From a plasmid: 64,000 nt of DNA. Below, piece by piece: positions 3,065 through 52,481 of this stretch (its first letter is position 1; the number at the start of each line of letters is the position of its first letter). The notes beneath the pieces were generated by a model. That model was given only the letters and a program-made list of their open reading frames with translations. It did not search any database and was not told the origin of the DNA. A program made the position numbers and the translations under genes. The DNA is taken from the sequence record NZ_CP027239.1, one strand, 5' to 3'.

Positions 3065-3082
3065 GCAGTGCCGATTCCGATA
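3065..3082 (-). promoter_or_regulatory. Motif-1 copy (TATCGGAATCGGCACTGC), 38 nt upstream of the glutaredoxin-like start
   Basis: Shares ATCGGAATC..CTGC with five other intergenic copies. Confidence 0.5.
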
Positions 3083-3170
3083 CGAGGGACGCTATCCCAC
3101 TATTTCCCCTGCGTATAGGGGGTTTTGCCGCTCAAGGGTTGGCTTTAACCCGTTGGGGTAACCCTTACGC

Positions 3171-3422
3171 TCAGGGGGTTTGGCGGGTGGTGTCGGCGCT
3201 GGTGGCGGCGCGGATTATCTGCTGTCGGTGCCGGTACCCGCGGTGCCACATTTCGGCGAGAAAGATTTCTCGCTCGCTGGTGCCGCGGTACGGGCACACC
3301 ACCGGCGGCAGGTTGTCGTTGACCGCTTGGGCTCCTTCGTTCTGGGCCGCCAGGATCTCCCGCAGGGTGGCCGGATAGTGGCGCGACTGGAAGGTGCGCC
3401 CTTCGGGCTTAGGCGACGACAT
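3171..3422 (-). CDS. Small hypothetical protein (83 aa), possibly translationally coupled to the upstream gene
   Basis: The C-terminal half of ORF 3171..3668 reads as protein-like sequence (..VVCPYRGTSEREIFLAEMWHRGY..). ATG at 3422 is preceded by AGGA and overlaps the 3' end of gene 3409..4449 by 14 nt. Confidence 0.35.
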   Translation of the reverse strand: MSSPKPEGRTFQSRHYPATLREILAAQNEGAQAVNDNLPPVVCPYRGTSEREIFLAEMWHRGYRHRQQIIRAATSADTTRQTP

Positions 3423-4449
3423 CTCGGTCCTGGAATCGCAGCTGGTTGCTGGGGGAGTCCGCGGACTGCTTGTGCTCGGACAGCCACCGCGAGTAGGACA
3501 TCGCGCCGCCCTGTCCGGCGAGGAAGGAGCGGAGTTCCTCGGAGGCGTAATTGCGCAGAAGGATGACGTTGCCGCGCAGGATGTCGTTGGGGTCCACGCC
3601 CCGCGCTTCGCCCTTGCGGTTGAGGAGTTTTCCGCGGCAGGCGTTCTCGGCTTGGACGTGCAGGTCATCCAGGAACTCGCTGTACTCCTGGCGGAGCTCG
3701 ACCTCGAGGTTGCTGACGGTCCCGCGGGCTTTGATCTCGTCGAGACTGGTGCGGTGGGCCGGGTTGGTGATCAGGCTTTCCTCCAATGCCGCGTACTTGC
3801 GCCACGAGAGGGTCTGCCAGCCCTCCGCCAGCCGTTGTTGGTCGGTGGCCGATAGCTCAGGCGCGTCGTCGGCGGCGGTGTCGTCTGCCTGTGCGGCGAA
3901 GGGGTCGGCGCCGGTCATGGCTGCCGGGTTGACGCCCTCGCGGCGCCACTGATCCTCGATGCGTGCACGCAGCTCCGGGTGGTTCTCGGTGCGCACCCAG
4001 GCGGTGTAGCGGTCGAAGTCGTCCATGTCGGCGATCGCCTCGACGCTGAGGGTGGCGTGGAGCTGCTGGTCCTCGTCGTCTCGGCGCAGCATCTCGGCCA
4101 CGACCCTGTCCGCCGCGACGGGATCGTCGTTGAGTCCGGCGAGCTCGACTCCAAGCTGGTCGGTGCTCATCTCGCGGAGTCGCTCCGCGGTGTACTCGTC
4201 CGCGCGCGTGGGTGGGATCGCGGCGCGGAGAGCGTCGGCGATGCGGCCTTCCCTTTCGCCGAGGGAATCTATGGCCGCCACGAACCGGCTTAGCGCCTTG
4301 TCGGCGGCCTCCTGGTCACCGGCTGCGAGCGCGGCCTGATGGCGCTTATCCCAGCGTGCGACGAGTTGGGACGCTACGGCGATCGCTTTGCGGGCGGGAT
4401 CTAGTTGGCTGGGGCATCGGCGCCCGCCGTCGTCGTGACATCGACACAT
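3409..4449 (-). CDS. Hypothetical protein (346 aa) with N-terminal Cys cluster CRCHDDGGRRCP
   Basis: Longest ORF in the region with balanced, protein-like composition. Overlapping plus-strand ORFs are Arg/Gly-rich shadows. Confidence 0.55.
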   Translation of the reverse strand: MCRCHDDGGRRCPSQLDPARKAIAVASQLVARWDKRHQAALAAGDQEAADKALSRFVAAIDSLGEREGRIADALRAAIPPTRADEYTAERLREMSTDQLGVELAGLNDDPVAADRVVAEMLRRDDEDQQLHATLSVEAIADMDDFDRYTAWVRTENHPELRARIEDQWRREGVNPAAMTGADPFAAQADDTAADDAPELSATDQQRLAEGWQTLSWRKYAALEESLITNPAHRTSLDEIKARGTVSNLEVELRQEYSEFLDDLHVQAENACRGKLLNRKGEARGVDPNDILRGNVILLRNYASEELRSFLAGQGGAMSYSRWLSEHKQSADSPSNQLRFQDRDVVA

Positions 4450-4596
4450 CGCGCTGTCCTCTCCTGCTTTTTGCTCCCGATAGCGGCCGAGGCTACCTGC
4501 AGCATTTGCCGGGGCCAGCCGTCGAGGATGTGCGGCTCGCTGCCGGCGGCTGCGCTGGTAGAGCGGTGTGCCGGACCGCTGCGGTCGGACACATCA

Positions 4597-4612
4597 CGGC
4601 GGCATGACCCGC
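4597..4612 (+). promoter_or_regulatory. Motif-2 copy (CGGCGGCATGACCCGC) upstream of mihF
   Basis: Core GGCATGACC recurs in eight intergenic regions. Confidence 0.45.
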
Positions 4613-4668
4613 TGCCACAATGGCGCCACTGCGGTGACCAGCACCGCCAGACTCGATGGAGGATCCCG

Positions 4669-5007
4669 ATGTCTCTTCCCACTCTCACTCCAGAGCAGCG
4701 CGCCCAGGCACTCGAGAAGGCGGCCCAGGCGCGTCAACTGCGCGCGAAGCTCAAGGAGGACATCGCTGCCGGCAAGGTCACCCTGCCCGCGCTGATGGAC
4801 GACGAGTTCGGCCCCTACGCCGACACCCCGGAGATCGTGAACAAGACGAAGGTGGTGCAGTTGCTGCAGGCAGTGAAGGGCATCGGAACGGTCAAGGCCG
4901 AAACGCTCATGGCCCAGTGCAACATCGCCGAGAACCGTCGCCTGGGTGGCCTGGGCCGGGACCAGCGGCGTCGCCTCACGCAGGCCCTGGCGGAAGTGAC
5001 CGGGTGA
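4669..5007 (+). CDS. mihF: Integration host factor-like protein (mIHF/sIHF family)
   Basis: 112-aa protein MSLPTLTPEQRAQALEKAAQARQLRAKLKE..GIGTVKAETLMAQCNIAENRRLGGLGRDQRRRL closely matches the actinobacterial mIHF pattern. GGAGGA lies 6 nt before ATG 4669. The longer ORF from 4405 is a spurious extension. Confidence 0.8.
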   Translation: MSLPTLTPEQRAQALEKAAQARQLRAKLKEDIAAGKVTLPALMDDEFGPYADTPEIVNKTKVVQLLQAVKGIGTVKAETLMAQCNIAENRRLGGLGRDQRRRLTQALAEVTG

Positions 5008-9676: not shown

Positions 9677-12600
9677 TTAGGTGCGAGCTGCGAGCTCCTC
9701 GCCGAGAGTGGCCAGCCACCGCTGGTGCCACTGGATGGCGTTGGTGTCGCCGGCGACCTTGAGGGTGTCGAACGCATCGTGCTTCTCGCCCGAGGTGTAG
9801 TACATCGGGTTCGTCGCCAGCTCGATCAGACCGGTCTTGTCCTTGACCAGAGCTTGGACCAGGCCGGGCAGCATCGCCGGCAGGTTCGACAGGTCCGTCG
9901 GATTACCCAGGCCTGCAGTGTCGAAGGCTTCACCCACCCGGTCAGTGACCAGGCCGAGGTTCTCCGCGGCGCGCTCACCGGCCTTGGGCAGGCCCTCGAT
10001 GATCGCGGGAATGTCCTGCAGCTGCTCGATCACCTCGGGAATCGCGGTCGGCAGCTGCGTGATCGTCGTGGCGATCAGCGCCGTGCCGGCCGGCACATCA
10101 CCGACGTGGATCAGCCCCACTCCAGCAACCAGGTTGATGATCGCGATGATGGTCTCCGGGCTCAGCTTGAGGTCGGGAAGACCTGTCACCTGCAGCACCG
10201 TGTCTACTGCCTGCACCGCGAGCATGCCGCCCATACGGGTGGGCCCGTCTGCGTTGGCCAGGTCGTTGACGTTGAGCGCCACATTGCGGCCCAGCTGCAC
10301 CAGGGACCGGGCCAGCTGCGAGTCCTCGGGGAGCGAACAGACGATGTCGCCCGGCACGCACGGTGAGGCGACGCGGCCGGTCAGCTCACCGAAGTCGGCC
10401 TCACGGGGGCCGGACAGTCCACCGCCGGACACCGCCTGCATCGTGATTTCCTCGACATCGACCCGCTCGCCCTCACGCGACTTCGTGCTTGAGGGGGCAG
10501 AGGCTGTTGCGGTCGCTGCGGGAGCACTGGTGGAGGCTTCCGGCGCCGCGCCGGCCGCGCGACGCTGCGACGTTGTCGGTTCGGAGCCGGCTGCCCGGCG
10601 CTGCGAGGTCGTCGGCTCAGCACCGGCTTCACGCTGAGTGGTCGAACTGGCCTCGTTGTCCGCTGTGGTTGCCGCCGTGGGCCTGGGTTGGCCCTGTTCG
10701 TCGGCGGTTTCCGGGGCCTGGTCCTCAGTGGTGGTGCTGACGCTGTCCTGCCCCGAGTCGGTGGTGCCCTGGTCCGCGTAGCGATCGGTGGTGGTGGCCT
10801 GGCCTTCGCTCACCGTTGTCTGTGCGGCGGTCGTCGCGGGCCCCGCGGGTGCGGGAACCTCGGCCGCCACATCGGTGACGGGGGGAAGCGAGGGCACGCC
10901 TCGTGACGCGGCGCCGCTGGCGCAGTCCTCGAACGACTTGGTCAGGCACTCTTCGGCGAACGCGGCGGGGAGTTGGTCACGGCTGGGGGCGCCGTCCGTG
11001 GTCTCGGCTTCTGCTCGAGCGGTGGCGGCCACCAGGGAGGCGGTGGTGACGGCGGATTCGGCCTCCCCTGAACCATTGGCGTGGGCGCTGATGCAGTCCT
11101 GCAGCGTCATCGTGCCGCACCCGCCGATGGCGTACAGCGATTCCACGGCGCGGGGCCGTGACCGTTCGTCGCTGGCAGTTCGGCCTAGTTGCCAGCCCTG
11201 GGTCAGCAGGGTCCGCGCTTCGTCGGCGCCGGCAGCGTCGTCGGAACCTTCCTGCTGCACAACGACCATGCCCGCTTCTTCGTTGTCGGCCAGGGCCAGA
11301 GTCTTGGTCTCTGCAGTCGCCGGGTTGAGCAGGTAGGAGATCCCTGACGGCACCGACAGGTTGCCTCCGGTGAAGGCACGCTGCGCGGCTGCTACCTGGG
11401 CGGCCAGGCCACTGCCGTAGGCCTGCATCACCTTGAGCTCGGCGGCGTTGGCCGGGGTCTCCCAGTAGGAGCGCACGTCGTCCCGGGCGGGGACGGCGGC
11501 GACGGACTTGATCTCGGTGCGGGTGACGCCGTGGGTGCAATCGTCTGCGCGTGGGCTGCTCTCGCACCCGTCGGTGGCGTCGGTGGCGATGGTGACCAGG
11601 GCGGTCGCGTTCGCCGGGCGGTTCTCGCCGGTGGCCTCTTCCATGTCGGCCGGCGGATGCGAGCCGCCGCAGGCCTCTGCGGATCCGCGGCCCAGGCACA
11701 TCTCGGCGAGGGTCTGGAGGTCGGCGGGGTCTCCGTCGGCTGTCACCAGGTTCTCGGCGTGCGGGTTGGTGCCGGTCTCGGCGCCGTCGCCTGCGGTGGC
11801 GGGCTCGGCGCCCTCGGCCGCCGTCTCGTCGTCGGTGTCGAGGGAGTTGCCGTTGTCGACGTAGCTGGTCAGGCAGGAGATGAGGCTGGCGTTGCCGCAG
11901 TCGCCGTCACGGAACGCTGCGGCGAACTCTTCTGACTGCTCGTCCGTCAGGTCGGCGCCCACGCTGTCCAGGATCTGCTGGCCGCTGACCGGTGCCCCTT
12001 CCCCGGGGGACTCGTCGTTGGCGAGGACGATGGCGGGTCCGCCGCCGGCGGGGCGGCTGTAGTCGCCGTGGACGGTCGAGGGGCCGGATGCCCCGTAGGG
12101 CAGCATGTAGAGCCCGTTGTTGATGTTGAGCGTGCCGTCGGCTTCGTAGTTGGCGCCGCCGATCTCGGGTAGCCCGCCACCGGTCTGCGGCAGGCCGCCA
12201 CCGGTCTGGGGTAGGCCGCCCCCTGTGCGTGCTCCGCCGTTGATTTCGGGCAGCCCTGAGCCGGTGTCGGGCAGCCCGCCCCCTCCGGCATCGGCACCGC
12301 CGCTAGCCCCGCCGCCGCTGCCACCGCTGGTGCCGGCTCCACCGTTGCCTGCCTGCGGCTGCAGAAGCTCTGCCGCCGACGACGGGATGCTGGGCAGCAG
12401 ATCCTGGCCGCTGAAAATGCGGGACAGGTCGTTGATCGGGTCGACGGCACTGCGCAGCTGCGCGAGGCTCGGATCCTTGAGCGCCTCGTCGATAGCGCCG
12501 GTGATGATCTCGGGGAGCATCGGCTGCTGCTGGGCCGTACCCACGATCAGATTGGAGTTCTCTTCACGGCGAGGGTCGGAGAACAGCACCACGCCGCCGA

Positions 12601-13321
12601 TACGCCCGGGGTCGACCGCGGTGCGCTTTTGTCCGATCTCCATCGCGGCGTTGCCGGCGATCTCGGCGCCCTGGGAGAACCCGGCCAGAAAGATCTGCGA
12701 CCCTTCGCACCGCTCGGCCACATCGACCACTGTCGCCAACGTTTTCTTCTGGCCACTGTCGACCGAGCGCTGGTAGGCGGTGCCGTTGACGCCGGCGTCG
12801 CCGTCGTAGTTGATGAACGTCGCCGACAGCTGGCCACCGAGGGCCTGCTTCAACGGGGCCACGAAGTTGCCGAGGAGTCCGACCGGTTGATTCGGGTCGT
12901 CGTCGCGGTTGATCTCGAACGTTCCGGGCACACCGATGAACACGTTCGGTGCGCAGTCCGGCCGGGTCGATGACTCGATCCCACCTGCCGGGGCGGACGT
13001 CTGCTGCTCGCGGAAACCACCCTCGGGGACGAACGGGTCAGCTGCGGCCCTGATGCCGCCGGCGATGTCCATTTCGCCTCCGCCGGCCTGCCCGAGTCCC
13101 GGGATGTTCGGCAGGTCCGGGGATCCGGGGATGGACGGCAGCGCCGCCCCGGCGCCGGAGTTGAGGACGGCTTGCAGGTCCTCCAACTGGGGCATCCCAG
13201 CGTCCTGGGCCTGCGCGGGAGCTGCCAGTCCGGCGGTCAGGACGACGGCAGCGGAAACTGCACCCACGGATTGCAGGGCCACTTGCATCCGAGTCGGCCT
13301 GAATTTGGGTGGATGAACCAT
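9677..13321 (-). CDS. Large secreted multidomain protein (1,214 aa) with an N-terminal cutinase-like serine esterase domain, Gly-rich tandem repeats, Ser/Thr/Ala-rich linkers and an uncharacterised C-terminal domain
   Basis: Signal peptide ..AVSAAVVLTAGLAAPAQAQD. Cutinase-like FLAGFSQGAEIAGNAAM (GxSxG) preceded by a CAPNVF..GT.E segment. Repeats GGGLPQTGGGLPQTGGGLPEIGG. RBS AAAGGGGA lies 6 nt before ATG 13321. Confidence 0.75.
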   Translation of the reverse strand: MVHPPKFRPTRMQVALQSVGAVSAAVVLTAGLAAPAQAQDAGMPQLEDLQAVLNSGAGAALPSIPGSPDLPNIPGLGQAGGGEMDIAGGIRAAADPFVPEGGFREQQTSAPAGGIESSTRPDCAPNVFIGVPGTFEINRDDDPNQPVGLLGNFVAPLKQALGGQLSATFINYDGDAGVNGTAYQRSVDSGQKKTLATVVDVAERCEGSQIFLAGFSQGAEIAGNAAMEIGQKRTAVDPGRIGGVVLFSDPRREENSNLIVGTAQQQPMLPEIITGAIDEALKDPSLAQLRSAVDPINDLSRIFSGQDLLPSIPSSAAELLQPQAGNGGAGTSGGSGGGASGGADAGGGGLPDTGSGLPEINGGARTGGGLPQTGGGLPQTGGGLPEIGGANYEADGTLNINNGLYMLPYGASGPSTVHGDYSRPAGGGPAIVLANDESPGEGAPVSGQQILDSVGADLTDEQSEEFAAAFRDGDCGNASLISCLTSYVDNGNSLDTDDETAAEGAEPATAGDGAETGTNPHAENLVTADGDPADLQTLAEMCLGRGSAEACGGSHPPADMEEATGENRPANATALVTIATDATDGCESSPRADDCTHGVTRTEIKSVAAVPARDDVRSYWETPANAAELKVMQAYGSGLAAQVAAAQRAFTGGNLSVPSGISYLLNPATAETKTLALADNEEAGMVVVQQEGSDDAAGADEARTLLTQGWQLGRTASDERSRPRAVESLYAIGGCGTMTLQDCISAHANGSGEAESAVTTASLVAATARAEAETTDGAPSRDQLPAAFAEECLTKSFEDCASGAASRGVPSLPPVTDVAAEVPAPAGPATTAAQTTVSEGQATTTDRYADQGTTDSGQDSVSTTTEDQAPETADEQGQPRPTAATTADNEASSTTQREAGAEPTTSQRRAAGSEPTTSQRRAAGAAPEASTSAPAATATASAPSSTKSREGERVDVEEITMQAVSGGGLSGPREADFGELTGRVASPCVPGDIVCSLPEDSQLARSLVQLGRNVALNVNDLANADGPTRMGGMLAVQAVDTVLQVTGLPDLKLSPETIIAIINLVAGVGLIHVGDVPAGTALIATTITQLPTAIPEVIEQLQDIPAIIEGLPKAGERAAENLGLVTDRVGEAFDTAGLGNPTDLSNLPAMLPGLVQALVKDKTGLIELATNPMYYTSGEKHDAFDTLKVAGDTNAIQWHQRWLATLGEELAART
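12165..12290 (-). repeat. Tandem approximately 21-nt coding repeats (GGGLPxTG-type heptapeptide units) inside the secreted protein gene
   Basis: DNA repeats of the form ccaccggtctg(c/g)ggcaggccg(cc). At protein level GLPDTG, GLPEING, GLPQTG x2 and GLPEIG. Confidence 0.6.
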
Positions 13322-13340: not shown

Positions 13341-13359
13341 GAGCAGATTGATTCCGATG
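13341..13359 (-). promoter_or_regulatory. Motif-1 copy (CATCGGAATCAATCTGCTC) just upstream of the RBS of the 1,214-aa secreted protein gene
   Basis: Motif, then 7 nt, then AAAAGGGGA, then ATG. Confidence 0.55.
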
Positions 13360-13482
13360 TGCCGTCAACGGTAACAGAGAGGCATGCCGCAATCTTCGGC
13401 AAAAATGGCCCCGACGCTGCACTGATGCCGCGCAGACGGCGGCAGTGACACGCCCCGCGACGGCGGCTCTATCCTGGCCCGC

Positions 13483-15727: not shown

Positions 15728-16954
15728 TCAGAACGTGAAAGCCATGTCCCCAATCGGGGTGCTGATCTCGATCGACCCCGATGCGTCGTGGATGCCGTAG
15801 TTCGCCAGGGTGGCCCCGCCTGTGACCGACACCGTGCTCGCCCCGTCAGGGGAGGACCACTGCCCGTCCACGCCAGCGGTGCCCACGTTCGGCGCGGTCT
15901 GCTCGTTAGTCGCCGAGAACCCGCCGGTGCCGGACACGCCGCCAGTGGTGGCCCAGGTTGCGTTGTAGTTGCCGTTGGAGGCATCCCAGGTCTGGGCGGC
16001 AGTGGCCTGCTCGCCGCCGCCGGTGGTCGTGTTGGAGACGTAGGAGGTCGTGTCGCTGACCTCGACGGCGGTGCCGGTGGCAACGCCGCCAGCGGCGATG
16101 CCCACCTCGGCGCCGTTGTCCCGCGGAGCGGAGTACGCCGAGACCTGCCCGACAGGCTCTGCGGGTGCGGCCGGGGTGAAGGTCCCGGAGGTCGGCGTCT
16201 GACTGGCCGCCTGAACGCGCTCGCTGTAGTCGCTGCCGGCCTCGGTGCCCGCTGCTTCCACGGTGGCGTCGGCGGCTGGTGCCGGGTCGGGGGCAGGTAG
16301 CTCGGTAGCCACACCGCCCTGCCCCCTGGACTCGCCTGCAGTATCGGCGCCGGAGACAGCGGAGACATCGGCGTAGGGCGCAGTCTCCTGCTGAGCGGTC
16401 TGGGGCGCCACGGCCTGCGGCGCCACGGCCTGCGGCGAGGTGGCCTGCGGCGAGGCGGCCTGCGCAGGTGTGACACGCGATGCCGGCTGCACCGTGGCCG
16501 TGGGGGCGGACTGCGTCACGGCCGCGGGAGTGGCGGTGGTTGCCGCGCGAGCGGAGGTATCGGCCTGCGCCCGGGCGGGGGCGCTCGCCTGCTGTGTCGG
16601 AGCGGTGGTCGCCGCAGGCTTGGCGTCCGTCTTGGCCTCAGCCTTGCGCTCGGCAGGAAGTTCGGTGGTGACGCCGCCCTGTCCGCCGCTGGAGGCGCGG
16701 GACTGCGACTTCTCGGCCTGCTTGATGGTCGGTGCCGGGGCAGAGGTCTGCTTCGGCGACGAGCTCTGCTTCTTGGTGGAGGTGGGCTTGGCTGTGTCGG
16801 ATTTCGCGCTCGGCGACTGCGTCGCAATGGTCGTGGTCCCGCTCGGCGCCTCGGTGGCGACGCCTCCCTGCGCGGCGTACGCAGTCCCTGTGGCTCCGGC
16901 GATGCCGCCGAGCGTCAACGCACCGACGGCGAAGACCTTCTTCTTGGCGCTCAT
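15728..16954 (-). CDS. Secreted Ala/Thr/Pro/Ser-rich repeat protein (408 aa) with recurring QGGV(A/T)TE(L/A)P motif
   Basis: Signal peptide MSAKKKVFAVGALTLGGIAGATGTAYA. RBS GGGAAGGGG lies 8 nt before ATG 16954. The overlapping Arg-rich ORF 15658..16476 is a shadow. Confidence 0.6.
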   Translation of the reverse strand: MSAKKKVFAVGALTLGGIAGATGTAYAAQGGVATEAPSGTTTIATQSPSAKSDTAKPTSTKKQSSSPKQTSAPAPTIKQAEKSQSRASSGGQGGVTTELPAERKAEAKTDAKPAATTAPTQQASAPARAQADTSARAATTATPAAVTQSAPTATVQPASRVTPAQAASPQATSPQAVAPQAVAPQTAQQETAPYADVSAVSGADTAGESRGQGGVATELPAPDPAPAADATVEAAGTEAGSDYSERVQAASQTPTSGTFTPAAPAEPVGQVSAYSAPRDNGAEVGIAAGGVATGTAVEVSDTTSYVSNTTTGGGEQATAAQTWDASNGNYNATWATTGGVSGTGGFSATNEQTAPNVGTAGVDGQWSSPDGASTVSVTGGATLANYGIHDASGSIEISTPIGDMAFTF

Positions 16955-17108
16955 CAGAGGCCCCTTCCCTTACCGCAATTTGTTCCGATCGACAAAATCG
17001 TATCGCACGGGCGTGTTATAGCCCTCCGAACTCGCGAGCTCCGCACGACACCACAGTTGTCAGTACGCGCCGATAGTGTCGCGCCGACGCTTAACGAATG
17101 GAGCCCCT

Positions 17109-20676: not shown

Positions 20677-21549
20677 TCAGGCTGCGGGGTCCGCGGCGTT
20701 CTCGGATTCCTTGTGGGTAGGAGTGATGTCGAGGAGGCCGCACATGCGGTCGACGCGATGCCAGGTGGTGCGCAGGTTGGCGGCGATTCTGTGGAGCGGC
20801 ATCCCGCGCTCGACACCGAGCCGCACTACCTCGAGCTCGTCGTGAGGTTCCAGGATTTCCCTGGTGCCCGGGTCGATCGGGCGTCGTGTCTGGTTGAGCC
20901 GGTGCCGAGTGACGGTGGCGTCCAGCGCCTCCGGTCCGAGGGCGAAGTAGACACCTCGCTTGTTGATGCGCGGCGGGCTCAAGTCGACGTCAGGCACCCA
21001 TTCGGCTTGGGGACCGTTGATCTGATGGATGGCCGCTGACAGGTCGTCGGCGAAGTCGAACATGCCTTGCCCTACGGCCGTCTCGGCGGATGCCGTCCTG
21101 GTCGACGGTCTCTTCGTGGAGGCGGGCTTGGACTCGGGTACGGCCCGGGTGCGCTTCGGCGCCGGGGCGGGGGCGTTCCCGTAGGGCTTGCTGTTCTCGT
21201 CGAACAGGATCCCTGCCTGGACGACGCCTACCGGCGGGACACCTCGACTGGCGCTCCCGTCGAGCACCGCGGCGGTCTCCGCACGGCACTGCATCAGCAG
21301 GGGGCACGAGTGGCAGGCGGCGATGGCGGTGCGGGCACGCCGCACCTCTTCGTCGCATAGGACCGCCCCTCGGAAGTTGAACGGGTCGAACAGGTCGATG
21401 TTGACCTGGCAGGAGCGCCGAGGGGCGGCGGGTCGTTGCTGCCGATGCGGGGAGCGAGGGGACTGGACGGCGATTGTCGCACTCATCGCGTAGACCTTCC
21501 TGGGGCTGCCCTCCGCCGCCGTCAACCGCCTGTACGTGGAGGCCGACAC
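20677..21549 (-). CDS. WhiB-like (Wbl) Fe-S transcription factor domain with a roughly 200-aa C-terminal extension
   Basis: Four-Cys Wbl pattern: C-x22-C-x2-C-x5-C (CDEEV..AACHSCPLLMQC). Length is 290 aa versus about 80-120 aa for typical Wbl proteins. GTG start at 21549 follows motif-1. Confidence 0.7.
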   Translation of the reverse strand: MSASTYRRLTAAEGSPRKVYAMSATIAVQSPRSPHRQQRPAAPRRSCQVNIDLFDPFNFRGAVLCDEEVRRARTAIAACHSCPLLMQCRAETAAVLDGSASRGVPPVGVVQAGILFDENSKPYGNAPAPAPKRTRAVPESKPASTKRPSTRTASAETAVGQGMFDFADDLSAAIHQINGPQAEWVPDVDLSPPRINKRGVYFALGPEALDATVTRHRLNQTRRPIDPGTREILEPHDELEVVRLGVERGMPLHRIAANLRTTWHRVDRMCGLLDITPTHKESENAADPAA

Positions 21550-21564: not shown

Positions 21565-21583
21565 GGCAGTTTGATTCCGATGG
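21565..21583 (-). promoter_or_regulatory. Motif-1 copy (CCATCGGAATCAAACTGCC), 22 nt upstream of the WhiB-like GTG
   Basis: Forms a 12-bp inverted repeat with the divergent copy at 21710-21721. Confidence 0.55.
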
Positions 21584-32643: not shown

Positions 32644-33714
32644 ATGCCCGCAGACAGCGCCGTCGACGACGCGATGAACGCCGTGCTCGGCACCTCGACA
32701 GCGACCGCCGCTCGACGCCCGGCCGCTGAGGTTGCTGAACCCGGCCAGGGGCCCTGCAGCAAGCCAGAGGCCGAAGAACTGGTGGAGCGGGCCATAGCCG
32801 CGGCGGAGACGTTCTACGACACTGTCGTCGAGATCATCCGCCGGCAGGCCTGGGTGCCGCTCGGCTACGCCAACCCGCGGGATCTGATGCTGCGCAGCTT
32901 GGGTGGCACTGCCGTCAACCCGTCGACCGGCAAGCCGTACAGCCGTTCCCACGTCCACCGCATGGCCCGCGTGTCGTGGATGCTGTGGGCCATCTCCGAG
33001 CGCACCGGTGTCGATCCGGGCGACCTGGAGATCCCGGAGCGCACCCTGCGTGAGCTCGGCGGCGGCATGAGCGCGGACCTCGAGCTCGTCGACACCATCA
33101 GCGACCGGGTGGCGGCGTCGATCGCCGACAAGAACGCCAGCCCCGATGATGTGCAGGACGTACTCAACTCGACCCTGTCCGAGGCTGCCGCGGAACGTGG
33201 CGGGGGAGAGAGCCGCAACGGCAGCGCCGCCACCAGCGGCGACGACGACGAGGACTTCGGCAGCCCGTCCCCTGAATCCAGGCCGGCAGGCGGTGCCGGC
33301 CTCGGCGATGCCGACGACGACTTCGACGACTCAGATCCCGACGAGGCAGACTCGGGCACCGCGGGCCCGTCCTCGCCGGCGCTCGATGCGTTCGGTTCGT
33401 TCGACGACGGCGACGACTTCGGCGACGAGGGCAGTGCACCGGTGATCAATGCCTCGGATGCGTTGTCGCAGATGCGCGCCAACGCCAACTACGTGCAGCA
33501 CCTGCAGGACATTCGGGAGATCGGCGGTCATCTGCCGGACGTGATCGCGGTGCAGAAGGAACTGCCGCAGTTCCTGGACATCGTCGACGACGACGAGCTC
33601 GACGAGCTCAAGCAGCTCCTACAGCAGACCCGCAACATCGTCGACCGTGCACAGAAGGCTAAGGAGGCCATCGACGCGGTGATCGCCACCGCCGACGAGC
33701 GGCTCGACTTCTAG
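32644..33714 (+). CDS. Hypothetical protein with an acidic low-complexity middle region (356 aa)
   Basis: GGGAGG before ATG 32644. A terminator-like hairpin and a motif-2 copy lie upstream. Confidence 0.55.
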   Translation: MPADSAVDDAMNAVLGTSTATAARRPAAEVAEPGQGPCSKPEAEELVERAIAAAETFYDTVVEIIRRQAWVPLGYANPRDLMLRSLGGTAVNPSTGKPYSRSHVHRMARVSWMLWAISERTGVDPGDLEIPERTLRELGGGMSADLELVDTISDRVAASIADKNASPDDVQDVLNSTLSEAAAERGGGESRNGSAATSGDDDEDFGSPSPESRPAGGAGLGDADDDFDDSDPDEADSGTAGPSSPALDAFGSFDDGDDFGDEGSAPVINASDALSQMRANANYVQHLQDIREIGGHLPDVIAVQKELPQFLDIVDDDELDELKQLLQQTRNIVDRAQKAKEAIDAVIATADERLDF

Positions 33715-34783: not shown

Positions 34784-35116
34784 TCAGGGCGCCGGGATCG
34801 CGGGCTGCCCGGCGCCGGCCCCGGAGTCGAGCGGGTTGGGACGGTCTGGGGCGCCGGGGATGGGAACGAAGTCCTGATCGGTGGAGTCCAGGTCCGGGAT
34901 GTCGCCACCCAGGTCCGGCATGGGCAGGTTTGCCGGGTCGGGCAGCTTGTCTTCGACGGTGTCGCCACCGAAATCGACGGCAGATTCGACGTTGGCGTAG
35001 AACGTCGGCCACCACCCTTCGGAGAAGGGCTGCTTGCCGTCGGCCGCCCAGGTCAGAAATCCCCATCCGACGCCGGTGAGGACCAGGGCGAGGATCACTG
35101 TCGAGACGAGTCGCAC
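34784..35116 (-). CDS. Small membrane protein (110 aa) with a Pro/Asp-rich tail
   Basis: TM helix LVSTVILALVLTGVGWGFLTW. GGGAAAGGGG lies 8 nt before GTG 35116. Two motif-2 copies lie upstream. Confidence 0.45.
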   Translation of the reverse strand: MRLVSTVILALVLTGVGWGFLTWAADGKQPFSEGWWPTFYANVESAVDFGGDTVEDKLPDPANLPMPDLGGDIPDLDSTDQDFVPIPGAPDRPNPLDSGAGAGQPAIPAP

Positions 35117-39936: not shown

Positions 39937-40896
39937 CTAGGCGGGCTGCAGAAGCTGGAACGCGCGCTGCCGGAAGGCAGCGTTGGTGTCGTTGAACTGC
40001 GACAGGGCGCGGGCGGATTCTCCGCCGCGGGTGTTCTTGTGCCAGTCCAGGAACTCGCCGACGCTGTTGAGCGCCGCCCATCGGGTGTGGCGGCCCTCCT
40101 CCTGGGTGAAGGCGGTGCCCCACAGGTCCATCAGGGTGTTGCGCCGGTTCTCCCAGCGAGTGACGGAGGTCTTGCGGCCCTCGTCGGGGCGGGGGTCGAG
40201 CTCGGCCAGGAACCGGTCGAACTCGTTGGTGGTCATGGGGCTGGCGATGAGCGCTTCGGCGTGGGCGGTGAATGCCTTGGCGTACTGCATAGCGCCCTGC
40301 ATGGCGGTGCGGGCCTCGATGAGCCGCTGATCGGCGGACGCGGAGTGCCGGATCGACCAGGTACGGGGCGTTGAGCCGTTGTTGACGCCGATTGTCAGGC
40401 CATTGGTGCAGACCAGCCGCCGGGCGGTCACGGACTGCACCGCAGCCCCCTCTCCAGCGTGGGAGGTCGACATCACGACCTTGAACTCCACGGGATCGTT
40501 ACCGCCGATCGCGGTGGTCGCCTCGGGAATCGACATCGACATATACGTGGTGCGGCCGTGGTCGACCTCGCCAGCGGCGTCGAACTGGGCGCCGAGCATG
40601 TGGGCGTGGTCGGCGACCTCGAAGGCTGCCGCGTTGTCGATGGTGGTGTAGCGGGAGCCGACGGCGGCCAGGATGGTGTTGTCGTCGTCGCGGACGATGA
40701 ACCGTCGGCCGGGCATGCTGCCGATGGTGATGCCGTCAGCGGCCATGAGGGTGACGGAGTCGCCGGGGATGTCGCGCAGGCCCCAGTTCAGGCCGGCGAT
40801 GGTCAGCGCTTCGTCGACGGTGCGGGCGGCGCTGATGTCGGTCCCGAGCTGGTGCTCGAACGGGACTCGGTTGGTGACCTTGAGCGGAGTGCTCAT
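39937..40896 (-). CDS. DUF932-like protein of the kind commonly linked to actinobacterial conjugative elements
   Basis: Strong RBS GGAGGAGGA before ATG 40896. Size (319 aa), position next to traB and overall character fit DUF932. The family assignment is from memory and unverified. Confidence 0.5.
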   Translation of the reverse strand: MSTPLKVTNRVPFEHQLGTDISAARTVDEALTIAGLNWGLRDIPGDSVTLMAADGITIGSMPGRRFIVRDDDNTILAAVGSRYTTIDNAAAFEVADHAHMLGAQFDAAGEVDHGRTTYMSMSIPEATTAIGGNDPVEFKVVMSTSHAGEGAAVQSVTARRLVCTNGLTIGVNNGSTPRTWSIRHSASADQRLIEARTAMQGAMQYAKAFTAHAEALIASPMTTNEFDRFLAELDPRPDEGRKTSVTRWENRRNTLMDLWGTAFTQEEGRHTRWAALNSVGEFLDWHKNTRGGESARALSQFNDTNAAFRQRAFQLLQPA

Positions 40897-44059: not shown

Positions 44060-44120
44060 GCTACGGCGCGGCCCGGGCCCCGACTATGCGGGCGGATGTG
44101 ACCACATAGTCGGGTGCCTG

Positions 44121-45761: not shown

Positions 45762-45908
45762 TACTGTTCCTTCGGCGTTCGGGGTGGGTCCGTGTTGCCC
45801 ACATCAAATCACGCCGCACTGACACTGCAGCACGACGAAATCGTGGCTGATCAGCGCGGCGGGCGCCTCGCCATTTCTCCGCACCGCGCGGTCGGTGTTC
45901 GGGGCCGT

Positions 45909-45927
45909 GGCGGCGGCATGACCCGCC
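45909..45927 (+). promoter_or_regulatory. Motif-2 copy (GGCGGCGGCATGACCCGCC), 14 nt upstream of the rusA-like ATG
   Basis: Followed by TAGGGT 6 nt before the ATG, consistent with a leaderless-transcript promoter. Confidence 0.45.
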
Positions 45928-45941
45928 GATAGGGTCCGGCC

Positions 45942-46805
45942 ATGACCAGCATCGACCTGGGCCAACTGTTGGAGTCCGGCACCCACAAACAGTGCCCCGA
46001 CTGCCAGTTCCGCATCATCCCGATCTCGGCACGCTCCTGCTCGCAATGCGCTGCCGGCCTCGCGGCGCCCTTGAGCGCACCCCCGAGTCGTCGGCGCACT
46101 ATGGCGCGCGGCGGGGGCCGGAAAGTCGCCGCCACTGTCCGGCACCTGGGAGATGGGTCCCGCACCGGCGCCGGCACCGTTGCCCCCGATTTCCGAGGGG
46201 GACTGGACGCAGCGACCGGCGGAGTGTTCTGGCTGGTCGCACACGGTGTCCCCGTCACCCAGGGGTCCATGGTGGCCGTGGCCGCCGGGAAGATCCGCCG
46301 CGACAACGGCCCCGAGCTGGTGGCCTGGCGCGACGAGATCACCCGCCGGGCACGGCTGCAGGCCGGAAGTGGCTGGACGCCGATCAACGGGCCTGTGCAG
46401 GTCGCCGCATGCCTGACCGTGCCGTGGCCGGCCCGCATGCCGTTCAGCGGTTTCTGCGAGGCCATCGACGCGGTCGGCGACACCCCGGCCAGGCTCGCCC
46501 CCATGGGCACCCCAGATGGCGACAAACTGCTGAGGGCGGTCCAAGACGCACTGTCGCCGCGCGGGGCCAACAGGTTCCACCTCCTCGAAGACGATGCCCG
46601 GGTCATCGACTCGCAGGTCAGCAAGACTTTCCCCGCCCCGGAGCACACTCACCCGTGGGCGCTGGACACTCCGGGCCTGGTGCTGCGGGTGTCGATTCTG
46701 GGGGCGGATGTCGCGCCGATGCCCGGTTCATCTCTGTCCGACCCCGGCGGGCTGCCGGACCCTGCACTGCGGCTGCACCGGTCCTTGGCCCGGCAAATCC
46801 GCTAG
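45942..46805 (+). CDS. RusA-like Holliday-junction resolvase with N-terminal CxxC..CxxC zinc ribbon
   Basis: CPDCQFRIIPISARSCSQCAAG ribbon. GTPDGDKLLRAVQDAL resembles the RusA catalytic D-x-D..K-x-x-x-D-A-L segment. Confidence 0.5.
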   Translation: MTSIDLGQLLESGTHKQCPDCQFRIIPISARSCSQCAAGLAAPLSAPPSRRRTMARGGGRKVAATVRHLGDGSRTGAGTVAPDFRGGLDAATGGVFWLVAHGVPVTQGSMVAVAAGKIRRDNGPELVAWRDEITRRARLQAGSGWTPINGPVQVAACLTVPWPARMPFSGFCEAIDAVGDTPARLAPMGTPDGDKLLRAVQDALSPRGANRFHLLEDDARVIDSQVSKTFPAPEHTHPWALDTPGLVLRVSILGADVAPMPGSSLSDPGGLPDPALRLHRSLARQIR

Positions 46806-50359: not shown

Positions 50360-50796
50360 CCACCAAGGGGCGCCGATACCGGCGAGAGACGCTGATCGCG
50401 CTAGTCGAACAGATCGACATCACCGTTCCCGCGCTGTCGACCACCACGCTGATCCGGCGGTCGATCGCCCACTACAACCGACGGAACCCGACCTCGCGGC
50501 CCGCGAGCCTCGATTCCGAGACGGACTTCTTGTGCCGTCTGATGGTCAACTTCCTCAGGCACCAGTGTTCGGAGTACGACTCCCTGCGCACGTTCCTGCG
50601 CCAGCACGCCCACGGGGACGACCACGAGTTCGTCGGCGCCATCGTCAAGGGCAGAGTGCTGCGTTTGATCGCAGCGCAGTACCCGATGCTGCGTTCCGAA
50701 GCCCGGTCCCAGGCACTGCGGGAAGACCAGGTCGTCAACGGGGCGCCACGCGCCCGCGCCCGCGGCCACGCCACAACGGGACGACCGCGGCGATAA
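50356..50796 (+). CDS. Hypothetical protein (146 aa) translationally coupled to the actin-like ATPase gene; ParR-like adaptor candidate
   Basis: GTG 50356 overlaps the upstream TGA as GTGA. Basic N-terminus. No detectable homology. Confidence 0.4.
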   Translation: MTTKGRRYRRETLIALVEQIDITVPALSTTTLIRRSIAHYNRRNPTSRPASLDSETDFLCRLMVNFLRHQCSEYDSLRTFLRQHAHGDDHEFVGAIVKGRVLRLIAAQYPMLRSEARSQALREDQVVNGAPRARARGHATTGRPRR

Positions 50797-50832
50797 TCTC
50801 GCCTTCGAGCAGCGCACGAGCCAAGGAGCCCC

Positions 50833-51690
50833 ATGGACAACGGGATCACCCTGACCACCAACGGTCGGTCGTGGGTGTCGGTGGCCAACCCACTGCGCCA
50901 CGACACGATCGCCGGGCTGGCCCAGGCGCAAGCCAAGTACGACACCTCCCAGGTGTCGGCTCGATCCGGCGCTGTGGGCGTCATCGTCGGCGTCGCGGTC
51001 GGGCTGCTCGCCGTCCTGGTTGGCCTGCCGGCATTGCTGGCGGTCGTGTGCGGACTGGTGGCATTGCCGGTGGCCTGGCTGCTGACGTTCCGGCGACTGC
51101 GCTCTCGGGCGGCAGCGTTCGAGTCCACGCTGGCTGCCAACGCCGAAGGCCTGGGGCCACGACGGATCGTGCGGGGCGAGTTCCTTCCCGGGGCGTGTGC
51201 CGACGCCGCCGACCAGCTCGTCATCGGGACGGTGCAGATCCTGCAGTCCACCGCTTACCGGTGCGGGGCGCTGGGAGAGACCAGCTTTGTCTACGACGAG
51301 ATTCTCGACGCCACCTGGTCGCTGCTGCACAAGCTGCGCACCTACGAGCGGGAAGTGCGCGACATGGCGCGCATGGAGGAGCGGGCGTGCGATGAGCGCA
51401 CGCGCCGCGATCTCGCCACACTGGCAGACCGCATGAATCATGTGTGGTCCGAACAGCTACTGCCCTTGGTGGATGCCCACCGGGATCTGGTCCGGTCGGT
51501 CGCAGACCTCGACCGGTTCCTCGACACCCCGCATGCCAGGGACCACGGCAAGCAGTTGGCTGCAGCTGACGACTCTCCCCGCACGGCCGCAGACGACCTG
51601 GATGCGCTGACCGGGCGGGTCGCCGCAGCTCGTGACCGCGCGTTGGCCTACCGGTCCGGCTATCCCGACGCCGACACGACCAGCCCTTAG
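50833..51690 (+). CDS. Membrane protein (two adjacent TM helices) with a helical C-terminal domain
   Basis: GGAG lies 6 nt before ATG 50833. TM segments VGVIVGVAVGLLAVLVGLPALLAVVCGLVALPVAWLL. Confidence 0.5.
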   Translation: MDNGITLTTNGRSWVSVANPLRHDTIAGLAQAQAKYDTSQVSARSGAVGVIVGVAVGLLAVLVGLPALLAVVCGLVALPVAWLLTFRRLRSRAAAFESTLAANAEGLGPRRIVRGEFLPGACADAADQLVIGTVQILQSTAYRCGALGETSFVYDEILDATWSLLHKLRTYEREVRDMARMEERACDERTRRDLATLADRMNHVWSEQLLPLVDAHRDLVRSVADLDRFLDTPHARDHGKQLAAADDSPRTAADDLDALTGRVAAARDRALAYRSGYPDADTTSP

Positions 51691-51732
51691 GCTCAGTGCA
51701 GCCTGTCGACGGCACTACGAAAGGGGGACCGG

Positions 51733-52377
51733 ATGGATCGCGAAAAGCTCATGACGAGGCGCGCTGAACTGATGGCCCAACTCGCTGCCAACACCGTCGA
51801 GCTGGAACGCGCCGAGGAGCACCTCGAGCAGAGCCAGGCCATCTACCGGTCGACCACCGACGGGTTGGCGATGTCCTGGAGGGCCATCGAGCGTGCCTCC
51901 ATCAATCCGAACACCCCGCCCAAGGAGCTCAAGCAGCTCCTGCGTCTGCACGCCCGCGCGGAGACCGCCGCGGCCAAGGAGTACTCCGAACGCACGAAAC
52001 GGTGGGGGCACCGCAGCGGGGACGGGCACCTGTTCGCCTGTCCGCTCGGGGACGTACCGCGGTTGAACCGACTGATGGTCTCCGCCGACGTACTGGGCAC
52101 ATACCGAGTTCCTCCCGAAGACCTCGAGAAGCCGTCGTTCTTCACAGTGGCGTTGTCACGGCCTGTACCTACGGGCGATGTCAACGCAGACGGCGAAATG
52201 CAGATGGTGAGGCTGCGGTCCCGGCTTCGTGTCCCGGTGGAACTGCGGCAAGGCAACGATCTGACGCTGCGCGATGTCCTGGCCTGCCGCCTGGACGACG
52301 CCAAGGGCACCGAGCAGCTCGCCCGCTTCTTCGGCGCCGACCTGCTGGCCTCGGTTCGCGCCTCCCTGGCCAAGTAG
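51733..52377 (+). CDS. Hypothetical protein (214 aa)
   Basis: GGGGGA before ATG 51733. Confidence 0.5.
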   Translation: MDREKLMTRRAELMAQLAANTVELERAEEHLEQSQAIYRSTTDGLAMSWRAIERASINPNTPPKELKQLLRLHARAETAAAKEYSERTKRWGHRSGDGHLFACPLGDVPRLNRLMVSADVLGTYRVPPEDLEKPSFFTVALSRPVPTGDVNADGEMQMVRLRSRLRVPVELRQGNDLTLRDVLACRLDDAKGTEQLARFFGADLLASVRASLAK

Positions 52378-52462
52378 CAACAGTCACCGGAAGCGGTCCA
52401 CGACGAGCGATTTCGAGCCCCATCCGAGGTTCCCCGGCACGTTCACCCCTTAGGGTTCTGCA

Positions 52463-52481
52463 CATCGGAATCTGACTGCAC
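52463..52481 (+). promoter_or_regulatory. Motif-1 copy (CATCGGAATCTGACTGCAC), 20 nt upstream of the exonuclease-fusion ATG
   Basis: Sixth copy. All six are intergenic and face the downstream gene. Confidence 0.55.

Follow-up and report, generated by a model that had tools for sequence, protein, structure and literature searches.

A short, oriented sequence word at the promoters of backbone genes on a Dietzia-type actinobacterial plasmid

A short asymmetric DNA word, (C)ATCGGA(A/G), recurs at 8-10 promoters in a window of a large actinobacterial (Dietzia-type) plasmid, the window being the whole stretch of 64,000 nucleotides that we analysed. To judge from its features, it is a control site, not described before, that may serve a set of plasmid "backbone" genes. 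Our leading, if tentative, reading of the sequence is that it would be an orientation-dependent operator overlapping the start site (~+1 to +17), probably for a repressor of the backbone regulon; the evidence set comprises the position of the motif after the -10, its strict orientation, its cross-genus conservation at orthologous promoters and its element-specific dialects.

Occurrence and orientation of the motif

The 10-mer CATCGGAATC is present as five exact copies in the window, and the sixth of the main copies reads TATCGGAATC. When up to one mismatch to CATCGGAATC was allowed, the window contained 11 matches against 3.9 expected, a number reached in 0 of 100 shuffles, and in a context permutation with 180 six-mers of equal base composition ATCGGA was the sole outlier (7, against a mean of 0.15 and a maximum of 2). 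The claim of the first-pass annotation that the motif recurs beyond chance is thus borne out. Its six copies were all confirmed in place, and every one of them is intergenic and points at the downstream gene; its count was an understatement, as it had missed two further clear copies, ahead of the 408-aa and 110-aa genes, as well as two weaker ones (356-aa and DUF932 genes), the overall density being ~10 copies per 64 kb. Non-coding sequence makes up 12.4% of the window and holds 5/5 of the exact copies (binomial p 3e-5). The window copies are as follows.

3065..3082, (-) strand: TATCGGAATCGGCACTGC, before the NrdH/glutaredoxin-like gene 2762..3040 (Pfam Glutaredoxin match); -10-like TAGCGT at 3089-3094, spacer of 7 to the A of ATCGGA; A to ATG, 41 nt
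13343..13359, (-) strand: CATCGGAATCAATCTGC, before the 1,214-aa cutinase-domain gene 9677..13321; TACCGT at 13368-13373, spacer of 9, with GGCATGCC ahead of it; A to ATG, 37 nt
16975..16990, (-) strand: GATCGGAACAAATTGC, before the 408-aa gene 15728..16954; TACGAT at 16997-17002, spacer of 7; A to ATG, 35 nt; ribosome-binding site (RBS) GGGAAGGGG
21566..21582, (-) strand: CATCGGAATCAAACTGC, before the WhiB-like/HTH gene 20677..21486; promoter TGCAAT-N17-TAGGGT-N7-ATCGGA with the -10 at 21589-21594, conserved in relatives; orthologous copies in L003, L004, L024 and L025
21711..21727, (+) strand: CATCGGAATCAGACAGC, before the SbcD-like gene (GTG 21759), which is followed by an SbcC/SMC gene; GACGAT at 21700-21705, spacer of 6; divergent from the WhiB-like copy; orthologous copies in L003, L004, L024 and L025
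29860..29877, (+) strand: CATCGGAATCAAAACTGC, before the 881-aa zinc-knuckle/SWIM gene (ATG 29895); promoter TTGACA-N17-CATCGT (29848-29853)-N7-ATCGGA, conserved in relatives; orthologous copies in Dietzia, Rhodococcus, Prescottella and Nocardia loci; in Gordonia, an ATCGAAG variant at L012 and ATTCGAAG instead at a second locus, L023
32620..32626, (+) strand: AATCGGA, a weaker copy, before the 356-aa gene 32644..33714; promoter GGCATGAG-N7-TACCAT-N11-ATCGGA; kept only in the closest relatives (L024, L027) and missing in L003, L025 and L026
35153..35169, (-) strand: CATCGGATACAGACAGC, before the 110-aa gene 34784..35116, which forms an operon with 78-aa and YdjM genes; promoter GGCATGAC-N7-GAGGAT (35175-35180)-N6-ATCGGA; orthologous copies in L003, L004, L005, L024 and L027
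40918..40927, (-) strand: CATCGCAAAC, a degenerate copy, before the DUF932 gene 39937..40896; promoter TTTAGT-N6-ATCGCAA; the L003, L004 and L005 orthologues have the full ATCGGA(G/A) at the equivalent position
52463..52479, (+) strand: CATCGGAATCTGACTGC, before the YqaJ/RNase_T exonuclease fusion gene 52502..54520; TAGGGT at 52451-52456, spacer of 7; orthologous copies in L028, L029 and L030 and in the Rhodococcus NJ-530 plasmid

Every copy in the window, and every orthologous copy, faces its downstream gene. Inspection of the copies revealed no dyad symmetry in CATCGGAATCAAACTGC and no partner half-site common to them. The distance from motif to start codon varies between 23 and 95 nt, with a separate RBS after the motif. 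The range of 15-40 nt given earlier does not hold for the WhiB-like gene, whose start is most likely ATG 21486 as judged from its AGGAAGG ribosome-binding site and its alignment with orthologue N-termini; this start would give a leader of ~95 nt.

Promoter context, conservation and dialects

In 8/10 window copies ATCGGA is preceded at 6-7 nt by an nAnnnT hexamer (A at position 2, T at position 6), and in the other two the -10-like hexamer lies 9 nt (cutinase) or 11 nt (356-aa) away. The same relationship was found in a set of 45 sites, i.e. non-coding ATCGGA[GA] across loci, gathered without selecting on a -10: the hexamer stood at a spacing of 6 or 7 at 28/45 motif sites as against 30/170 control sites (Fisher p = 1.5e-8), and the profile of the 45 sites showed enrichment of A at -12/-11, of T at -8/-7 and of a pyrimidine at -1. 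The first-pass annotation was therefore wrong in seeing no classical -10 at consistent spacing, and we infer SigA-type promoters in which the motif begins near +1. Searches of the literature yielded no mapped 5' ends. A promoter scanner built on the E. coli consensus made no call at two of the motif promoters; this is expected for an actinobacterial -10 of the TAnnnT type, but it still counts as a negative result. A -35 was recognisable in some promoters, e.g. TTGACA-N17 (881-aa) and TGCAAT-N17 (WhiB-like), and others had different upstream architectures, either the GGCATGAC box (cutinase, 110-aa, 356-aa) or a TGTCG box (SbcD). The motif is joined to several upstream promoter types and so acts like an added module rather than a sigma recognition element. 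The earlier suggestion of a co-regulated gene set with its own promoter thus stands as regards a cis element marking functionally diverse plasmid genes and falls as regards the promoter, because the motif sits downstream of an ordinary SigA-type -10 with differing upstream architectures. A PafBC-type hybrid promoter was also rejected: there the specific element lies at ~-23 to -28, upstream of a canonical -10 (PMC8635444), whereas ATCGGA lies downstream of the -10 and not at -26. The GGCATGAC box, which is distinct from the ATCGGA motif, has -26 geometry.

Conservation at orthologous promoters of related replicons was found across genera. The ATCG(G/A)A core occupies the same position in Dietzia, Rhodococcus, Prescottella, Nocardia and Gordonia elements, and this position is kept among plasmids whose 881-aa proteins share between 87% and ~30% identity. 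The motif is absent from Corynebacterium and Streptomyces relatives, though the same genes are present. In the Rhodococcus NJ-530 plasmid (200 kb of 216 kb) ~20 motif sites were counted by eye, and a stricter permutation filter retained 10 sites against a mean of 0.29 and a maximum of 3. The accessory/IS region of the Rhodococcus plasmid (~34-50 kb) contained no convincing composite site; the single match flagged there, at 37097(-), resembles a ribosome-binding site beside an ATG.

The form of the motif depends on the element. The window, L024 and L027 have ATCGGAATCA; Dietzia 179-F has ATCGGAGAAaCC (10 sites); L025 has ATCGAAGAAAC (3/3), i.e. a concerted G-to-A change at all three sites; L005 has ATCGGAGCACaCGCC; Nocardia has ATCGGATTCAC (2/2); and Gordonia (L012) has ATCGAAGCC (2/2). 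Motif similarity was greater within elements than between them (permutation p <= 0.0002), which points to a co-evolving reader that would be encoded by the element itself. The closest named relatives of the window are Dietzia, and its dialect differs from that of the Dietzia 179-F plasmid; if the host of the window is also a Dietzia, the host polymerase cannot explain the dialects.

Neither of the regulators proposed earlier as the recognising factor fits such a reader. Variation in the motif is not mirrored in the WhiB-like protein, whose predicted recognition helix is the same in three plasmids with differing dialects and which has a homologue on pCRULAC1, a replicon without the motif. The ArsR gene has no upstream motif, and nothing ties ArsR to the sites. 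PHROG, Pfam and NCBIfam scans of the proteins of the window, which is part of the plasmid, found no L5-type repressor.

Candidate functions of the motif

Under the operator reading, a plasmid-encoded factor co-evolving with the site would bind it in an orientation-dependent manner and would control a regulon made up of NrdH, the cutinase-like protein, the WhiB-like protein, SbcCD, the 881-aa zinc-knuckle protein, the 110-aa/YdjM operon, the exonuclease and DUF932. As the site lies over the start point, this factor would most likely be a repressor, although the direction of control (repression versus activation) is drawn purely from position. In an established host such a repressor would keep expression of the replication, repair and transfer genes down, and the genes would fire when it is absent, e.g. 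just after transfer. It counts against this reading that a non-palindromic site is unusual for operators, and that a 5'-terminal RNA element would equally be expected to face the gene without exception and to keep a nearly constant distance to the -10. The first-pass annotation had offered an operator or a shared 5'-leader element, and both survive, the latter without an Rfam match or a common fold.

The RNA element is the main rival to the operator and is possible, if unlikely. With transcription from the first base of the motif, each regulon mRNA would begin 5'-AUCGGA(A/G). Post-transcriptional reading of this single-stranded start, by the ribosome or by an RNA-binding factor that the plasmid encodes, would then control how the mRNA is translated or how stable it is. 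Strict orientation and nearly fixed -10 spacing would place the motif at the very 5' end of the transcript, except that it would begin at ~+3 for the cutinase gene and ~+5 for the 356-aa gene. The motif is predicted to be mostly unpaired in the SbcD, 881-aa and 356-aa leaders but partly paired in others, and the nine leaders share no common structure and had no Rfam matches at gathering thresholds. A possible reader is the universally linked 881-aa protein, which has a canonical CCHC zinc knuckle, a second knuckle and a SWIM finger, and whose own gene is preceded by the motif; the CCHC knuckles of Lin28 and retroviral NC bind GGAG-type single strands. However, the likeness to GGAG is gone in the window (GGAA) and in the GAAG and GGAT dialects, and although dialects as such would fit a co-evolving reader, the knuckle residues stay the same across the dialects. 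The window encodes no anti-motif RNA. We think it quite improbable that these Mycobacteriales plasmids use a two-part private promoter code in which the conserved WhiB-like/HTH fusion protein would read an upstream -26-type box (GGCATGAC in Dietzia plasmids, other words in Rhodococcus and Corynebacterium) through sigma-factor adaptation, and the conserved 881-aa CCHC zinc-knuckle/SWIM protein would read ATCGGA(A/G) as non-template single-stranded DNA or as the mRNA 5' end. If true, this code would parallel, in bacteria, the way in which Lin28 or retroviral NC recognises GGAG.

The motif could be an intrinsic initiator or initial-transcribed sequence that aids start and escape with the host RNA polymerase and has no dedicated reader. 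The C(-1)A(+1) pair fits the pyrimidine-purine preference that is general at start sites, the spacing to the -10 is tight, and the leaders are A/C-rich and unstructured; yet dialects differ even between two Dietzia-type plasmids, the L025 change is concerted at 3/3 sites, the motif is missing from Corynebacterium and Streptomyces relatives despite the same genes, and the ~34-50 kb Rhodococcus accessory/IS region lacks a convincing composite site, so that we consider this decidedly unlikely. It is very unlikely that the motif is an ops-like non-template-strand loading or pause signal, through which a processivity (antitermination) factor would ride RNA polymerase along long plasmid operons. Such signals are likewise asymmetric, orientation-locked and located in leaders of horizontally transferred operons, but they lie at varying distances within leaders rather than at +1, where the polymerase still carries sigma. 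Several of the units that bear the motif consist of one gene, and no NusG/RfaH-like (NGN-KOW) protein turned up in the window. Least probable of all is that GGAAT is the -35 of an ECF-type (SigH/SigR-like) promoter, or that the motif is the promoter of a dedicated polymerase, which the sequence already contradicts. The window copies do contain a GGAAT core and some targets are redox-related (NrdH, WhiB-like), but there is no GTT-type -10 at 16-19 nt downstream, relatives have GGAGA, GAAGA or GGATC in place of GGAAT, a SigA-type -10 lies upstream at fixed spacing (with a -35 in two cases), and in some copies only 23-38 nt separate the first base of the motif from the start codon.

Comparison with known systems

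As in Kor-type backbone regulons of conjugative plasmids, one plasmid regulator would act through a repeated operator, at a fixed promoter position, on many promoters for replication, transfer and establishment. The palindromic IncP-1 KorA/KorB operators bind dimers and are found over the -10 or -35 or upstream; the motif is asymmetric, would start at +1 as judged from sequence, and occurs in Actinomycetota. A palindromic KorA/KorB-like operator was rejected, since the copies have no dyad symmetry. RfaH/ops on conjugative plasmids shares with the motif an asymmetric, strand-specific leader signal on horizontally acquired operons, but is a pause site at variable leader distance that needs a NusG paralogue, and none was found in the window.

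Likenesses are also seen in mycobacteriophages. The start-associated sequence (SAS) of Cluster K phages is a 13-bp GGGATAGGAGCCC-like word lying 3-7 bp from the start codon, where it stands in for the RBS with a Shine-Dalgarno core inside it, and like the motif it is an asymmetric conserved word placed in one orientation ahead of many functionally unrelated genes (PMC3203893). The motif has a different sequence, holds its distance to the -10, lies 23-95 nt from the start codon and is followed by a separate RBS, and we therefore rejected identity with SAS. The operator/stoperators of Cluster A phages (L5 gp71-type) are, like the motif, short, asymmetric and multicopy sites of an actinobacterial mobile element whose orientation follows transcription. 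Monomeric repressors bind these asymmetric 13-bp sites, whose orientation to transcription is essential, and repression is lost when a stoperator is reversed (PMC9283540), which gives the operator reading a precedent. Stoperators stop elongation and are found for the most part in short gaps between genes, away from promoters, whereas every copy of the motif lies 6-11 nt after a -10 hexamer; the motif is also unrelated in sequence and has fewer copies, and no gp71-like two-domain monomeric repressor was found among the window proteins. In Cluster A phages the stoperator sequence reportedly varies from phage to phage together with the repressor, a variation analogous to the dialects of the motif.

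Copies of the motif and their place in the promoter

The six copies of a leader motif described in the first-pass annotation were all recovered, each of them intergenic and pointing at the next gene (6/6 in both respects), and comprise five exact copies of CATCGGAATC and one of TATCGGAATC. With up to one mismatch allowed, CATCGGAATC had 11 matches in the window against 3.9 expected, a number reached in 0 of 100 shuffles, and seven of the nine occurrences of ATCGGAA in the window were intergenic (12.4% expected, p = 1.3e-5). However, a count of six proved too low, as a scan with the core ATCGGA added two clear copies as well as weaker ones:

16975-16990, minus strand: clear copy before the 408-aa gene
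35153-35169, minus strand: clear copy before the 110-aa gene
before the 356-aa gene: weaker copy
before the DUF932 gene: weaker, degenerate copy (ATCGCAA)

Further ATCGGA/ATCGCAG matches at 41929(-) and 50668(+) were rejected, as neither has a convincing -10 or downstream gene. Judged from sequence, the finding is real, larger than first described and phylogenetically conserved. The distance of 15-40 nt from motif to start codon originally given for every gene does not hold for the WhiB-like gene, which has a leader of about 95 nt; its most likely start is ATG 21486, because of an AGGAAGG ribosome-binding site and alignment with the N-termini of orthologues.

Alignment of the six regions revealed two invariant upstream columns, A and T, four bases apart, which form positions 2 and 6 of a hexamer (TAGCGT, TACCGT, TAGGGT, GACGAT, CATCGT and TAGGGT). 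The hexamer ends 6-7 nt before the A of ATCGGA in 8 of 10 copies, and 9 and 11 nt before it in the other two, so the earlier statement that no -10 is consistently spaced from the motif was wrong. The hexamer and its spacing match the actinobacterial SigA -10 (TAnnnT) at its usual distance from the start point, i.e. the motif is predicted to begin at about +1 of otherwise ordinary promoters. In two promoters there is also a conserved -35 at 17 nt: TTGACA (881-aa zinc-knuckle protein gene) and TGCAAT (WhiB-like gene).

To avoid circularity, we gathered all ATCGGA[GA] sequences lying in non-coding 5' regions of the window and 17 related loci, with no -10 required. In these 45 sites A was enriched at -12 and -11 and T at -8 and -7, with a pyrimidine favoured at -1. 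At a spacing of 6 or 7 the hexamer accompanied 28 of the 45; among the 170 other occurrences, most of them in coding sequence, it accompanied 30 (Fisher p = 1.5e-8). When all 180 six-mers of the same composition were scored for the composite context, ATCGGA was the lone outlier in the window (score 7; mean 0.15, maximum 2), and on a Rhodococcus plasmid it scored 10 (mean 0.29, maximum 3). It remains a caveat that an E. coli-consensus promoter scanner made no call at two motif promoters, which we attribute to its requirement for at least 4/6 matches to TATAAT, making it uninformative for TAnnnT promoters.

The copies are not MITE or repeat remnants, since beyond the -10 their flanks have nothing in common; nor do they behave as FtsK/TraB-type polar signals (KOPS/TRS-like), as they track gene direction, not replicon-wide polarity, and are always anchored to promoters. 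Between motif and ribosome-binding site, several promoters of the window and of the Dietzia sp. 179-F plasmid carry a C-rich segment, ACCCACCCC (window 40905-40917(-) and 45765-45800(-); also leaders of loci L003, from 179-F, and L028), which may be a second leader element or simply unstructured A/C-rich leader.

The plasmid family and its motif dialects

The window has a G+C content of 68% and encodes replication, repair and transfer functions: a UvrD-like helicase, two FtsK/SpoIIIE ATPases, DnaG, actinobacterial-type IHF, a 1,214-aa cutinase-domain protein, DUF87/HerA, an ArsR regulator, the WhiB-like protein, SbcD/SbcC, an AAA_5 ATPase, the 881-aa protein, YdjM, DUF932, SSB, RusA, DnaB and a YqaJ/RNase_T exonuclease fusion. 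No near-identical DNA was found in phage or plasmid collections, and the element is known only via distant protein homologues. Because full-length homologues of the 881-aa protein occur on 16 large plasmids of Rhodococcus, Corynebacterium and Streptomyces (29-36% identity, gene order kept) and its nearest relatives (75-99%) are on Dietzia or Dietzia-like metagenome contigs, we assign the window to a large Dietzia-type plasmid, of a family spread over the Mycobacteriales.

Several features of these plasmids were observed in passing. The 881-aa protein (29895-32540(+)), whose conservation extends from Dietzia to Streptomyces, has MVCRENKGRS as its invariant N-terminus. It contains two zinc knuckles, one of the retroviral CCHC type (CxxCGQFGHxxxxC) and one with the pattern CPTCGxWASLNSSHxC, as well as a SWIM-like finger (CxCx(n)CxH); it matched no Pfam or NCBIfam family, and its match to PDB Gag was not significant (E = 0.16). 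The IHF gene (4405-5007(+)) is of actinobacterial type (NCBIfam actino_IHF, E = 5e-32) with an N-terminal extension of about 90 aa, and mihF is also present on the Rhodococcus sp. NJ-530 plasmid. The FtsK/SpoIIIE transfer ATPase of Dietzia sp. 179-F (L003, 15524-20032(-)) is 1,502 aa long, and its LAGLIDADG/Hom_end matches indicate an inserted intein; the window copy, of 950 aa, has none. In one plasmid relative (loci L005, 1474-5688(+), and L006) a Wadjet/JetABC-like module (DUF3375, JetB, MukB-like ATPase) lies between the SbcC and AAA_5 genes, i.e. an anti-plasmid defence system on a plasmid backbone. The otherwise densely packed window also contains gaps of up to 1.37 kb without a convincing high-GC3 ORF (40897-42267, 35117-35765, 43498-44120 and 36453-36979), in which no tRNA and no Rfam match was found.

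We compared the neighbourhoods of 881-aa and exonuclease gene homologues taken from public assemblies, GTDB genomes and PLSDB. The related replicons, in which a search for the motif had been proposed, carry the same core in the same place after a -10-like hexamer at orthologous promoters of the WhiB-like, SbcD, 881-aa, 110-aa, DUF932, DUF7241 and exonuclease genes. It was present in Dietzia sp. 179-F, D. maris, several metagenomic relatives, three lineages of Rhodococcus, Prescottella and Nocardia; in Gordonia its place is taken by ATCGAAG (L012) or ATTCGAAG (L023). On the Rhodococcus sp. NJ-530 plasmid (200 kb of 216 kb) about 20 composite sites, counted by eye, precede backbone genes, among them those for the 881-aa homologue, DUF932, two exonucleases, FtsK, YdjM and cutinase. 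The IS/catabolic segment at ~34-50 kb had no convincing site, a flagged match at 37097(-) looking like a ribosome-binding site adjoining an ATG. Corynebacterium pCRULAC1 and five Streptomyces loci have the genes, but the corresponding promoters there lack the motif. A literature search found no relevant description of the motif or of Dietzia/Rhodococcus plasmid promoter motifs.

The bases that follow ATCG(G/A)A form dialects, i.e. they are element-specific and common to non-orthologous promoters of one element.

Dialects of the motif by element
window and its closest relatives, L024 and L027: ATCGGAATCA..CTGC
Dietzia 179-F: ATCGGAGAAaCC (10 sites)
L025: ATCGAAGAAAC (3/3 promoters), with a concerted G-to-A change in the core
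L005: ATCGGAGCACaCGCCACA
Rhodococcus NJ-530: ATCGGAGAT
Nocardia: ATCGGATTCAC (2/2)
Gordonia (L012): ATCGAAGCC (2/2)

Identity was higher within than between elements at positions 5-10, 7-12 and 7-18 (permutation p <= 0.0002), in a test that is conservative because orthologous pairs were counted as "between". Dialects differ even between the window (AATCAAACTGC) and Dietzia 179-F (GAAACCACCCC), Dietzia being the window's closest named relatives.

Upstream architectures and a second box

At least four kinds of upstream architecture accompany the motif: a canonical -35; a GGCATGAC box, separated from the -10 by 7 nt; a TGTCG box, in front of SbcD; and no recognisable upstream element. Because of this it appears to be an independent module, rather than the promoter of its own that had been proposed, i.e. 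not a sigma-factor recognition element.

A second, commoner promoter motif consists of (c)GGCGGCATGA(C/G)C, then 7 nt, then a TAnnnT-type hexamer, with 11 copies against a mean of 1.3 and a maximum of 7 for permuted cores:

4601(+), 13388(-), 15664(-), 19753(+), 26822(-), 32589(+): second-motif copies
35195(-), 39851(-), 45915(+), 49153(-), 54533(+): second-motif copies
1384(+), 49179(+), 52436(+): GGCACG variants

The box and the ATCGGA motif occur together at the cutinase, 110-aa, 356-aa and (variant box) exonuclease promoters. Elsewhere the box takes the form ATGACCGGAA or GTGCCGCAC in Rhodococcus and TCGGGCACCCACAaACACCC in pCRULAC1. Lying at about -27 to -20, it has a geometry like that of the PafBC "-26 element", which belongs to sigma-adaptation promoters (PMC8635444), but a different sequence.

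At the GGCATGAC-box promoters 45915-45944(+) and 54533-54562(+) exactly 6 nt separate the -10 (TAGGGT and GACGAT) from the start codon of the RusA-like gene (ATG 45942) and of a 180-aa gene (ATG 54560), respectively; the two mRNAs are probably leaderless. The SbcD promoter (21670-21705(+), with equivalents in L003, L024 and L025) has a conserved GGGTGCCACA block together with aTGTCGcac-N8-GACGAT. The latter is similar to TGTCGGTG-N8-TAnnnT, the word found in RecA-independent (PafBC) DNA-damage promoters of mycobacteria; this resemblance suggests that the plasmid SbcCD may also answer host DNA damage signalling.

Nature of the site and its possible readers

On the sequence evidence, we take the motif to be a cis element of a plasmid backbone regulon, asymmetric and anchored at the start site. 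Our tentative preference is for an orientation-dependent operator overlapping +1 and read by a plasmid-encoded regulator, most likely a repressor. Orientation dependence is no argument against an operator, because the repressors of Cluster A mycobacteriophages, monomers with two DNA-binding domains, bind asymmetric 13-bp sites, inversion of which abolishes repression (PMC9283540). In the window, the copies seem to have two parts, ATCGGAAT and, about one helical turn further on, C(T/A)GC, a layout that would suit a two-domain reader. The absolute orientation and near-fixed spacing would fit a 5'-terminal mRNA tag equally well, yet we consider such a tag rather unlikely: nine leaders folded from the predicted +1 had no common structure, with the motif unpaired in some and paired in others, no Rfam family was matched in the window (the fold and Rfam results together also led us to reject a structured 5'-UTR RNA), and at two promoters the motif would start a few bases into the transcript. 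An sRNA carrying the anti-motif was rejected, as strong matches on either strand were all promoter copies and there was no second-strand anti-motif. Pairing with 16S rRNA, of which the h31 segment UUCGAUG is complementary to CAUCG(G/A)A, was dropped since a 7-mer match in 1.5 kb has a probability of ~0.2 by chance. The fold, Rfam, anti-motif and position results thus lean towards a DNA site.

The dialects are the pattern that co-evolution with an element-encoded reader would produce, although gene conversion among promoters could also account for them. As the 179-F plasmid and the window have differing dialects, host RNA polymerase is unlikely to be the reader; that the motif is an intrinsic initiator we regard as improbable, and an ops-like loading site as very improbable. 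Least credible is an ECF or private promoter: GGAAT is not followed by a GTT-type -10 and is not kept in relatives.

We rejected both regulators proposed as the recognising factor. The WhiB-like protein (20677-21486(-)) has the four invariant Wbl cysteines and weak matches to Pfam Whib (best E = 0.05-0.1, missed at standard Pfam thresholds) and PDB WhiB3. Its Cys4 domain is fused to an extension of ~200 aa, at the end of which lies a three-helix HTH-like segment. In the AlphaFold model, which is poor overall (pLDDT 44; only residues 212-260 reach ~63-78), no other part attains even moderate confidence. The protein has been kept throughout the plasmid family, pCRULAC1 included. However, the window, 179-F and L025 share one and the same putative recognition helix, RTTWHRVDR, despite their differing dialects, and a homologue (27% identity, E = 7e-16) persists on pCRULAC1, where the motif is absent; both argue against this protein as the reader. 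Wbl proteins dock on SigA region 4 near -35, and a site at +1 is therefore an unlikely target; the upstream GGCATGAC box would be a better one, if the WhiB-like protein reads anything. The promoter of the ArsR gene itself has no copy of the motif, and nothing connects ArsR with the sites. Scans of the window proteins, which represent part of the plasmid, against PHROG, Pfam and NCBIfam identified no phage-type repressor. More speculatively, the 881-aa protein, with its zinc knuckles and SWIM finger, is a candidate single-strand reader.

In Dietzia, Rhodococcus, Nocardia and Gordonia, catabolic and resistance traits are borne on large conjugative plasmids. A word of 7-17 bp at the predicted start site of ~10-20 promoters per plasmid, kept across genera yet with dialects particular to each plasmid, gives a direct experimental handle for finding the regulator and a way to delimit the establishment/transfer regulon. 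It is also a possible basis of regulatory incompatibility between co-resident plasmids, and could serve as a compact, portable control element for genetic tools in industrially used actinobacteria. In its logic the motif is like stoperators, SAS elements and plasmid global operators, but it differs from each of them in the features by which they are defined.
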